The position numbers and the translations under genes are program-made. Below, in pieces: positions 10,863 through 11,273 of a stretch of 64,000 bases of DNA. The stretch's first letter is position 1. Each line of letters starts with the position of its first letter. Under the pieces are notes generated by a model that did no database searches, was not told the origin of the DNA, and saw only the letters and a program-made list of their open reading frames with translations. The stretch is from Escherichia coli (GTDB lineage: Bacteria; Pseudomonadota; Gammaproteobacteria; Enterobacterales; Enterobacteriaceae): the NCBI RefSeq assembly GCF_003334405.1, contig NZ_QOWM01000004.1. One strand, given 5' to 3'.

Positions 10863-11273
10863 ATGAAGTGGCAACAACGTGTTCGTGTCGCAACGGGTCT
10901 AAGTTGCTGGCAGATTATGTTGCATTTACTGGTAGTGGCGCTGCTGGTGGTGGGCTGGATGAGTAAGACTCTGGTTCACGTCGGCGTGGGATTATGCGCA
11001 CTGTATTGTGTCACGGTAGTGATGATGCTGGTGTTTCAGCGCCACCCCGAGCAACGCTGGCGTGAGGTGGCAGACGTGCTGGAAGAGCTGACCACGACCT
11101 GGTATTTTGGCGCAGCGCTGATTGTGCTGTGGCTGTTGTCCCGCGTTCTGGAAAACAACTTTTTGCTGGCAATTGCAGGGCTGGCAATCCTTGCCGGCCC
11201 GGCGGTAGTGTCTTTGCTGGCGAAAGATAAGAAGTTACATCACCTTACGTCTAAACATCGCGTACGCCGCTGA
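10863..11273 (+). CDS. ybhQ: Inner membrane protein YbhQ
   Basis: ORF 136 aa, hydrophobic. Confidence 0.85.

Follow-up and report, generated by a model that had tools for sequence, protein, structure and literature searches.

The genes ybhQ and ybhR of Escherichia coli end tail to tail on a segment of DNA that is read as protein on both strands, and we consider it likely that the locus is an ancient dual-coding overlap in which Rho terminates each transcript within its partner gene and a stem-loop defines the 3′ end of the ybhQ mRNA. The observations behind this reading are the overlap itself, its conservation, the synonymous constraint upon it, the hairpin, a 3′ end mapped for ybhQ, sensitivity to bicyclomycin on each strand, and raised amounts of double-stranded RNA (dsRNA) on both genes. 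The window, i.e., the whole stretch of 64,000 nt that was analyzed, is collinear with E. coli K-12 MG1655, and an MG1655 coordinate equals the window coordinate plus 813,767. The features of the locus are collected in the table.

Table. Features at the ybhQ–ybhR locus (window coordinates unless marked MG1655).
Feature	Position	Strand	Description
ybhQ CDS	10863..11273	+	136-aa inner-membrane protein; stop TGA at 11271-11273; from the ORF list, Pfam, and RefSeq
ybhR CDS	11235..12341	-	368-aa ABC-2 permease; stop TAA at 11237-11235; from the ORF list, NCBIfam, and RefSeq
Dual-coding segment, 39 nt	11235..11273	both	YbhQ L125-R136 plus stop (+); YbhR S357-M368 plus stop (-)
Stem-loop GTGGCCGTTA-TCACCAG-TAGCGGCCAC	11281..11307	+	7 nt after the ybhQ stop; within ybhR codons 345-354
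Dominant 3′ end of the ybhQ mRNA	11313 (MG1655 825080)	+	Term-seq; 40 nt beyond the ybhQ stop and 6 nt beyond the stem
Inferred Rho loading and termination zone of ybhQ transcripts	11308..11415	+	C-rich, G-poor; ends at bicyclomycin-sensitive 825182 (MG1655)
Extension of the operon transcript 3′ of ybhR, antisense to ybhQ	11162..11234	-	up to bicyclomycin-sensitive MG1655 824929
Zone of lowest synonymous variability, ybhR codons 334-361	11259..11342	-	mean entropy 0.438 vs 0.61 for the gene

The convergent overlap of 39 nt between ybhQ (+) and ybhR (-), which an earlier note on this DNA had pointed out, is real, and both open reading frames (ORFs) are conserved genes. According to the sequence and the ORF list, it comprises 13 aligned codons per strand with both stops included, in a register where the first position of each codon faces the third of its partner and the middle positions face each other. 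Each stop falls within the partner ORF: the TGA of ybhQ is the reverse complement of the TCA codon for Ser357 of YbhR, and the TAA of ybhR is the reverse complement of the TTA codon for Leu125 of YbhQ. Residues 1–132 of the 136 in YbhQ match Pfam PF11076 (E-value, 2.6e-73), and YbhR matches the NCBIfam ABC-2 permease models. The RefSeq/PGAP annotation and the MG1655 record give the same coordinates for both genes as the ORF list, and nine full-length E. coli matches among those listed, spanning the identity range, carry the same annotation. An artefact of annotation or sequence, in which either ORF would be miscalled, is extremely improbable, considering that both frames end at the same stops in dozens of genera, that both proteins are backed by protein-family models, and that the locus was found in 5424 of 5426 complete E. 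coli genomes. The earlier note had named a wrongly annotated start or stop as the finding that would remove the overlap; both stops, however, are fixed by conserved reading frames, and misannotation of a start codon cannot create such an overlap because stop positions are independent of the choice of start. The ybhQ/ybhR locus is an ordinary tail-to-tail overlapping pair of two real protein-coding genes.

Within its neighborhood, ybhQ is a lone + strand gene flanked by two - strand operons, namely cecR-ybhG-ybhF-ybhS-ybhR, of which ybhR is the last gene, on one side and ybhP-clsB-ybhN on the other. About 10 convergent gene pairs are annotated over the window's first 50 kb, and the coding sequences (CDSs) overlap in two of them: ybhQ/ybhR by 39 nt and rlmF/ybiO by 4 nt. 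To our knowledge, YbhQ has no experimentally defined function. With 66 representatives in a set of 1.84 billion proteins, the YbhQ family is very small; we collected 817 homologs, and the orthologs are nearly all 136 aa long. The most distant full-length members (128 aa, 34–40% identity) are encoded between ybhL/moaE and rhlE with neither ybhGFSR nor ybhPON nearby, indicating that ybhQ can exist without the transporter. The C-terminus of these distant homologs lies 6–8 residues earlier and again consists of a short basic tail. Such a tail ends every YbhQ homolog, with or without the overlap, and in Enterobacteriaceae the part encoded antisense to ybhR corresponds to the last 12 residues. In distant lineages without ybhR (L084 and L085), no convincing ybhQ terminator was found. 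Two further candidates for divergent YbhQ members (P0150 and P0184) were rejected as frameshifted assemblies, and the contigs of two others (P0134 and P0141) were too short for gene context.

To follow the overlap through the family, one genome per species was scanned, giving 80 Enterobacteriaceae loci in each of which the stops of ybhQ and ybhR were located. The overlap is exactly 39 nt in 65 of these 80 species-level loci. In Kosakonia cowanii (1/80) it is 48 nt because Ser357 of YbhR became Thr; in the type strain of E. albertii (1/80), ybhQ contains an early nonsense codon; and in the remaining 13 loci, the two genes are separated by 2–206 nt. On a neighbor-joining tree of ybhR, the 39-nt state occurs in every deep branch (Mangrovibacter, Siccibacter, Cedecea/Buttiauxella, and Atlantibacter), and the 13 separated loci form about five nested clades: part of Kosakonia, Raoultella with its relatives, two Phytobacter species, and two smaller groups. 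From this distribution, the overlap looks ancestral to the sampled Enterobacteriaceae and appears to have been lost several times through insertion. In the separated lineages YbhQ is longer, mostly 142–145 aa, and its tail is different yet still basic. A repeat search also detected a duplication in Raoultella. Across genera, YbhR shares 83–96% identity and YbhQ 63–86%. The overlap of ybhQ and ybhR is beyond chance.

Conservation of this kind could be neutral with respect to YbhQ. In that case, YbhQ would read on simply for want of an earlier stop, its last 12 residues would be functionless, and the 39 nt would be kept only by the C-terminus of YbhR. Several features are compatible with this explanation: YbhR is the more conserved of the two proteins; its residues M362 and F363 dictate K131 and H132 of YbhQ, and YbhQ residues 125–130 vary widely; a stop in the YbhQ frame is possible only opposite a YbhR Leu codon TTA or CTA or a Ser codon TCA; and the distant YbhQ homologs are, as described above, shorter by 6–8 residues. 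The distribution of synonymous changes in ybhR nevertheless argues against it. Synonymous variability was measured as the normalized synonymous codon entropy over 74 distinct ybhR sequences, for which the gene mean is 0.61. The five-codon window 357–361 is the least variable of 364 in the gene. The entropy of S357 is 0.12, with TCA in 94% of the sequences vs 14% of Ser codons gene-wide, and the Ala codons of the overlap are similarly low (A358, 0.00; A359, 0.23; A361, 0.24); the terminal region has five Ala columns, and each of them is among the seven with the lowest variability out of 31 (p = 1.2e-4). Other codons of the same overlap vary freely, with entropies of 1.0 at Y360 and K366 and 0.64–0.78 at F363, R364, and R365.

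What distinguishes the two sets of codons is the consequence for YbhQ, given that the third codon position of YbhR faces the first position of YbhQ. At the free sites, the resulting YbhQ change is conservative (V/I, L/F, or among S/A/T/P), whereas at the frozen sites a change would delete the ybhQ stop or turn R133, R135, or R136 of YbhQ into Cys, Gly, or Ser. The constraint also loosens at two positions once the overlap is lost: S357 is encoded by a codon other than TCA in 5 of 13 separated loci but in only 1 of 66 overlapping ones (Fisher p = 3e-4), and A359 by a codon other than GCG in 4 of 13 and 2 of 66, respectively (p = 6e-3). In the same comparison of overlapping and non-overlapping loci, GCG at A358 and A361 showed no relaxation in the separated lineages; part of the constraint (codons 358 and 361) may therefore have another cause, or the losses of the overlap may be too recent. 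On a wider scale, codons 334–361 form the least variable zone of ybhR, ranking first of 341 windows with none of the 306 non-overlapping windows as low, and this zone takes in the hairpin together with the distal portion of the overlap and extends about 30 nt past the ybhQ 3′ end. Its low variability fits selection on both frames. YbhR is the dominant constraint overall, and the ybhQ stop and the YbhQ arginines are also selected. The basic tail of YbhQ reads K-H-R-V-R-R, in which K131 and H132 are forced by M362 and F363 of YbhR; selection on the tail probably acts through its positive charge. With a basic tail at the end of all YbhQ homologs, whether or not they overlap ybhR, and the wobble bases of YbhR constrained just where the stop and arginines of YbhQ lie opposite, we regard the neutral explanation as quite unlikely.

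The ends of the two transcripts can be placed from published data. The earlier note had proposed that both mRNAs extend into each other and had suggested strand-specific mapping of 3′ ends as a check; published Term-seq provides such a map, and it locates the ybhQ 3′ end within ybhR, 40 nt beyond the stop codon of ybhQ. The end, 825080 (+), was reported by Adams et al. (2021; PMC7815308) in two growth conditions in the class “primary ybhQ / antisense ybhR,” and conversion of the coordinate puts it about 78–79 nt into the ybhR annotation. The same study identified two bicyclomycin-sensitive regions, one antisense to ybhR at 825182 (+), with a Rho score of 3.95 (p = 5e-7), and one antisense to ybhQ at 824929 (-), with a Rho score of 3.85 (p = 2e-7); the scores derive from 800-nt windows and a single experiment, and the positions are therefore approximate (PMC7815308). 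The + strand region lies about 100 nt downstream of the hairpin, and the - strand region (window position 11162) lies 73 nt beyond the ybhR stop, within ybhQ. In composition, the + strand is C-rich and G-poor over 11240–11360 (GC skew, about -0.32), and the - strand is C-rich over the whole of ybhQ. Between 824929 and 825080, the RNAs of ybhQ and ybhR are complementary over about 152 nt or more. Together with the dsRNA and the excludon listing described below, the ybhQ end at 825080 and the - strand region at 824929 bear out the proposal that the two mRNAs run into each other.

The coupled termination suggested in the earlier note is not supported. A consensus terminator/promoter scan yielded no intrinsic terminator for either 3′ end, including a shared or bidirectional one, and each strand has a Rho-dependent region of its own. 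The sole + strand match of that scan (11191–11205) lies upstream of the ybhQ stop, fits neither 3′ end, and was discarded. The hairpin at 11281–11307 could itself be considered an intrinsic (Rho-independent) terminator of ybhQ, possibly a bidirectional one, rather than a structure that protects the RNA after Rho has acted: it is a stable stem of 10–11 bp, the 3′ end lies 6 nt past it, a spacing that is typical of intrinsic termination too, and the palindrome is able to form on both strands. As + strand RNA, its folding energy is -18.5 kcal/mol (z = -5.3), and none of 200 shuffled sequences was equally stable; as - strand RNA, the value is -14.6 kcal/mol (z = -2.0). However, a U-tract after the stem is absent on both the + strand (AAACUAUUCC) and the - strand (GACAGGGUCA), the scan found no match at the hairpin, and the bicyclomycin-sensitive region on the + strand lies downstream of it. 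The + strand flanks are CCCUGUC and AAACUAUUCC. On the - strand, moreover, the hairpin sits within translated ybhR, 30 nt before the stop, where termination would truncate YbhR. We therefore rejected a bidirectional intrinsic terminator, for which the A-tract and U-tract flanks are absent and the - strand copy lies inside translated ybhR, and we hold an intrinsic terminator of any kind at this hairpin to be very unlikely.

The features of the ybhQ end match instead a class of Rho-terminated RNAs described by Dar and Sorek in 2018, in which stable 3′ ends follow a strong stem-loop that lacks a U-tract and Rho loads beyond it (PMC6061677). Likewise, the 3′ end of ybhQ follows a stem-loop without a U-tract, and the sequence downstream is C-rich and bicyclomycin sensitive; by analogy with this class, trimming by exonuclease up to the stem-loop would be predicted. 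The difference is that the stem-loop of ybhQ and its presumed Rho loading site are located in a convergent CDS and must fit the YbhR peptide.

Because the hairpin is written in ybhR codons, its stability has to be compared with what the peptide alone imposes. The null model was the same peptide recoded with gene-wide codon usage, which gives about -14 kcal/mol. For E. coli alone, 9% of the recodings match the stability of the hairpin (p = 0.09, not significant), and therefore much of the hairpin follows from the peptide W-P-L-L-V-I-A-A-T. A bias emerges across species: in 70 species, each compared with its own null, the median rank of the real hairpins is the 8.7th percentile, and 56% of the species fall under their own 10th percentile, vs 0–18% in nine control windows. 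Pairing is also kept at the level of individual positions. Across 60 species, 89% of the hairpin cells are paired, vs at most 64% when the register is slid, and nine cells are changed on both sides vs 1.7 expected (0 of 500 shuffles). Covariation is seen at the closing pair, which goes from G-C to A-U in six sequences, and at pair 8, which goes from C-G through U-G to U-A. The two innermost pairs rely on the wobble bases of rare codons, namely ATA, found at I351 in 73% of the sequences vs 6.7% gene-wide, and CTA, found at L348 in 59% vs 4.2% gene-wide. A353 is GCC in all 61 overlapping loci vs 6 of 9 separated ones.

As to which strand the structure serves, the + strand hairpin is the more stable in 44 species and the - strand hairpin in 30, the strands differing little in stability, and G-U outnumbers A-C by 20 to 11 in pairs 1–8, yet 23 A-C occur at pair 10. 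An Rfam scan of 9500–13500 on both strands returned no match at an E-value of ≤1. These comparisons suggest that the hairpin structure is under moderate selection, a reading that draws on the bias across species and not on E. coli alone.

Taken in sequence, the reading that we favor, an ancient overlap with Rho-terminated transcripts, would operate as follows. The conserved C-terminus of YbhR would set most of the 39-nt sequence, and the freedom left over at its wobble bases would be used to retain the ybhQ stop and the arginines of the YbhQ tail. With no intergenic spacer, neither gene would have room for a classical intrinsic terminator, and each transcript would enter the other gene. There, the antisense extension, untranslated and C-rich, would be stopped by Rho, and the ybhQ mRNA would be left with a precise 3′ end 6 nt past the stem-loop in ybhR codons 345–354; the hairpin would set and protect this end, probably by blocking exonuclease trimming. 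The outcome would be about 150 nt or more of complementary RNA able to form dsRNA.

Published captures of dsRNA are consistent with this expectation. In the four datasets of p19-captured dsRNA reported by Huang et al. in 2020 (PMC7373196), ybhQ yielded 293, 205, 281, and 342 reads per million (RPM), ybhR 322, 230, 304, and 354 RPM, and ybhS 16–30 RPM, i.e., the first two genes exceed the third about 10-fold. The near-equal values for ybhQ and ybhR suggest that one hotspot was counted for both genes. In total RNA, the antisense reads of ybhR exceed its sense reads (24.0 vs 14.2 RPM), the values for ybhS being 1.2 and 16.2 RPM (PMC7373196); the strand column of this source looks unreliable for some genes, and we give its RPM values limited weight. 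Formation of dsRNA from the ybhQ/ybhR pair is likely. Most of the ybhR antisense signal is explained, by arithmetic on the same data, by the 79-nt extension of ybhQ at the read density of ybhQ. Furthermore, in the one dataset examined (PMC7373196), sense RNA did not rise in the RNase III mutants rnc-14 and rnc-38 for ybhQ (from 111 to 99 and 65 RPM, respectively) or for ybhR (from 14.2 to 11.6 and 6.2 RPM), and the RNA levels of these mutants give no hint of a strong RNase III effect on the pair.

These data bear on the antisense interference for which the earlier note saw scope and which may occur at this pair. In one reading, the overlap has been selected for regulation as a true convergent excludon, in which polymerase collision or cleavage of the duplex by RNase III makes YbhQ and YbhFSR mutually exclusive. 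The pair is listed in Table 1 of the ExcludonFinder study (NAR 2025; PMC12288877) among 165 convergent excludons of MG1655, which were called where transcription overlapped in 50% or more of 58 RNA-seq sets. The transcript overlap of about 152 nt or more, the dsRNA of 205–354 RPM on ybhQ and ybhR against 16–30 RPM on ybhS, the excess of antisense over sense reads on ybhR, the retention of the arrangement across the family, and the precedent of mscL-arfA (PMC10070815) all speak for such a device. On the other hand, neither sense RNA is raised in rnc-14 or rnc-38; the antisense reads of ybhR roughly equal the 79-nt extension of ybhQ alone; the constraint from two proteins accounts for conservation without regulation; ybhQ occurs without ybhGFSR in more distant relatives; and the genes have become separated in about five lineages. 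We consider a regulatory excludon unlikely, if somewhat less so than the other alternatives, and the effect of either gene on the other is probably at most modest.

Comparison with known systems places the locus more precisely. With the convergent excludons of MG1655, it shares a short or absent spacer and conserved synteny; it differs in that the CDSs themselves overlap, beyond the 3′ UTRs alone, and in that no intrinsic terminator was found at it, whereas overlapping terminators were predicted in 146 of the 165 convergent pairs (PMC12288877). Its closest experimentally proven analogue is mscL-arfA of E. coli and other Enterobacterales, for which antisense regulation was demonstrated by a more than 2-fold rise of mscL RNA in ΔarfA (PMC10070815). 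Like ybhQ-ybhR, that pair is arranged tail to tail with the 3′ end of one mRNA complementary to the 3′ CDS of the other, and its CDSs overlap in some Enterobacteriaceae (PMC10070815); its spacing varies by species, however, whereas the ybhQ-ybhR overlap is constant at 39 nt across genera. Among prokaryotic antiparallel overlaps in general, ybhQ-ybhR has the common form of a 3′-end overlap with each stop in a sense codon of the partner. According to a recent preprint (bioRxiv 10.1101/2025.11.07.687268), the longer convergent overlaps are mostly in phase 1; ybhQ-ybhR is codon aligned, which is “phase 0” in the terms of that preprint.

Parts of this picture were already known. Every annotation contains the overlap, mapping of the transcript ends and of their Rho dependence dates from 2021, and the excludon was catalogued in 2025; the idea of antisense interplay at ybhQ/ybhR is likewise not new. 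What is added here is that the 39 nt are fixed across the family and apparently ancestral to the sampled Enterobacteriaceae, that selection has left a measurable footprint in both reading frames, and that the mapped ybhQ 3′ end can be tied to a hairpin written in ybhR codons, including the rare ATA and CTA. We regard ybhQ/ybhR as a well-behaved example rather than a discovery.

A more far-reaching interpretation is that the overlap and the hairpin form a selected three-way module of about 75 nt, composed of two protein tails and an RNA 3′-end structure, which has been kept since the origin of the Enterobacteriaceae because it links ybhQ, a strongly transcribed gene, to the 3′ end of cecR-ybhGFSR, the exporter operon. 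We think this rather improbable; if it were true, transcription of ybhQ would cap the output of YbhR, or induction of the exporter would silence ybhQ, and YbhQ would be functionally linked to the YbhFSR pump. The locus is a compact natural test case in which two proteins and an RNA element are written on the same bases, and it is a practical site at which to test whether catalogued excludons regulate. A regulatory link, if true, would be the first functional clue to YbhQ.

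Within ybhQ itself, a 3' end lies 60 nt into the ORF in cells grown in LB to OD 0.4 (MG1655 824690, corresponding to window 10923 on the + strand; PMC7815308), and this position falls within codon 21. The Rho score of this end was 0.6 ('No') and its intrinsic-terminator score was 4.9 (PMC7815308). A small hairpin (GCAAC...GTTGC, window 10890-10907) is located 16 nt upstream of the 3' end, which could represent premature termination or a processing site.

The gene ybhN is a stronger sense-antisense hotspot than ybhQ/ybhR. The dsRNA captured by p19 on ybhN amounted to 985-1255 RPM in three datasets, far above the level on ybhQ or ybhR (PMC7373196). 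Furthermore, a bicyclomycin-sensitive region antisense to ybhN has been mapped inside the gene (MG1655 821989 on the + strand, window 8222; Rho score 3.77; PMC7815308). The convergent gene ybhM ends 35 nt from ybhN, and the antisense signal within ybhN probably arises by read-through from ybhM.

The window contains a second convergent overlap of coding sequences, between rlmF (+) and ybiO (-), and this pair is also an entry in the ExcludonFinder list of convergent excludons (PMC12288877). Meanwhile, adjacent genes on the same strand overlap in both operons flanking ybhQ, as is usual where translation is coupled. For ybhF, the longest ORF begins with GTG at window 15229, which places its start 15 nt ahead of the annotated one.

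Gene ybhN and other gene overlaps in the window
Feature	Type	Length	Window position	Strand
ybhN	gene		7775-8731	-
clsB/ybhN	same-strand overlap	1 nt	8731	
ybhP/clsB	same-strand overlap	4 nt	9969-9972	
ybhS/ybhF	same-strand overlap	8 nt	13478-13485	
ybhF/ybhG	same-strand overlap	8 nt	15207-15214	
ybhG/cecR	same-strand overlap	1 nt	16205	
rlmF/ybiO	convergent overlap	4 nt	29488-29491	+/-

In some other genome assemblies, copies of ybhQ or of the exporter genes appear broken. In the type strain of Escherichia albertii, NBRC 107761 (L006:529-939), codon 16 of ybhQ reads as nonsense (TAG in place of TGG), and the 3' geometry of ybhQ with ybhR is unaltered; either the gene is dispensable there or the codon is a sequencing error. 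In E. coli UTAK-1 (L002:2036-4812), the annotation marks all three of ybhR, ybhS, and ybhF as pseudogenes with frameshifts, and the match to the query falls to 88% identity. These frameshifts look more like assembly indel errors than true decay of the exporter. Similar ybhR breaks are also found in three further loci (L023, L038, and L049).

In two distant lineages, with genomes of 3.46 Mb and 1.15 Mb (L084:3001-3387 and L085:3001-3387), ybhQ encodes 128 aa and sits after moaE, with ybhL in between in L084; rhlE comes next after ybhQ in L084 and not in L085. Both ybhPON and cecR-ybhGFSR are absent from these two loci; therefore, the - strand operons on both sides of ybhQ in E. coli were either inserted, or lost in the L084 and L085 lineages.

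In Raoultella (L073:2884-3120 and L078:2882-3146), ybhQ and ybhR are separated by a gap of 183-206 nt. This gap holds a duplication that has diverged (79-94% identity; period about 122-147 nt) and that takes in the 3' end of ybhQ. Related YbhQ tails (...P-K-[AS]-F-G-L...N-P-x-x-H-R; 133-145 aa) occur across several separate clades, suggesting either that a common insertion has spread by recombination or that this site was hit more than once.
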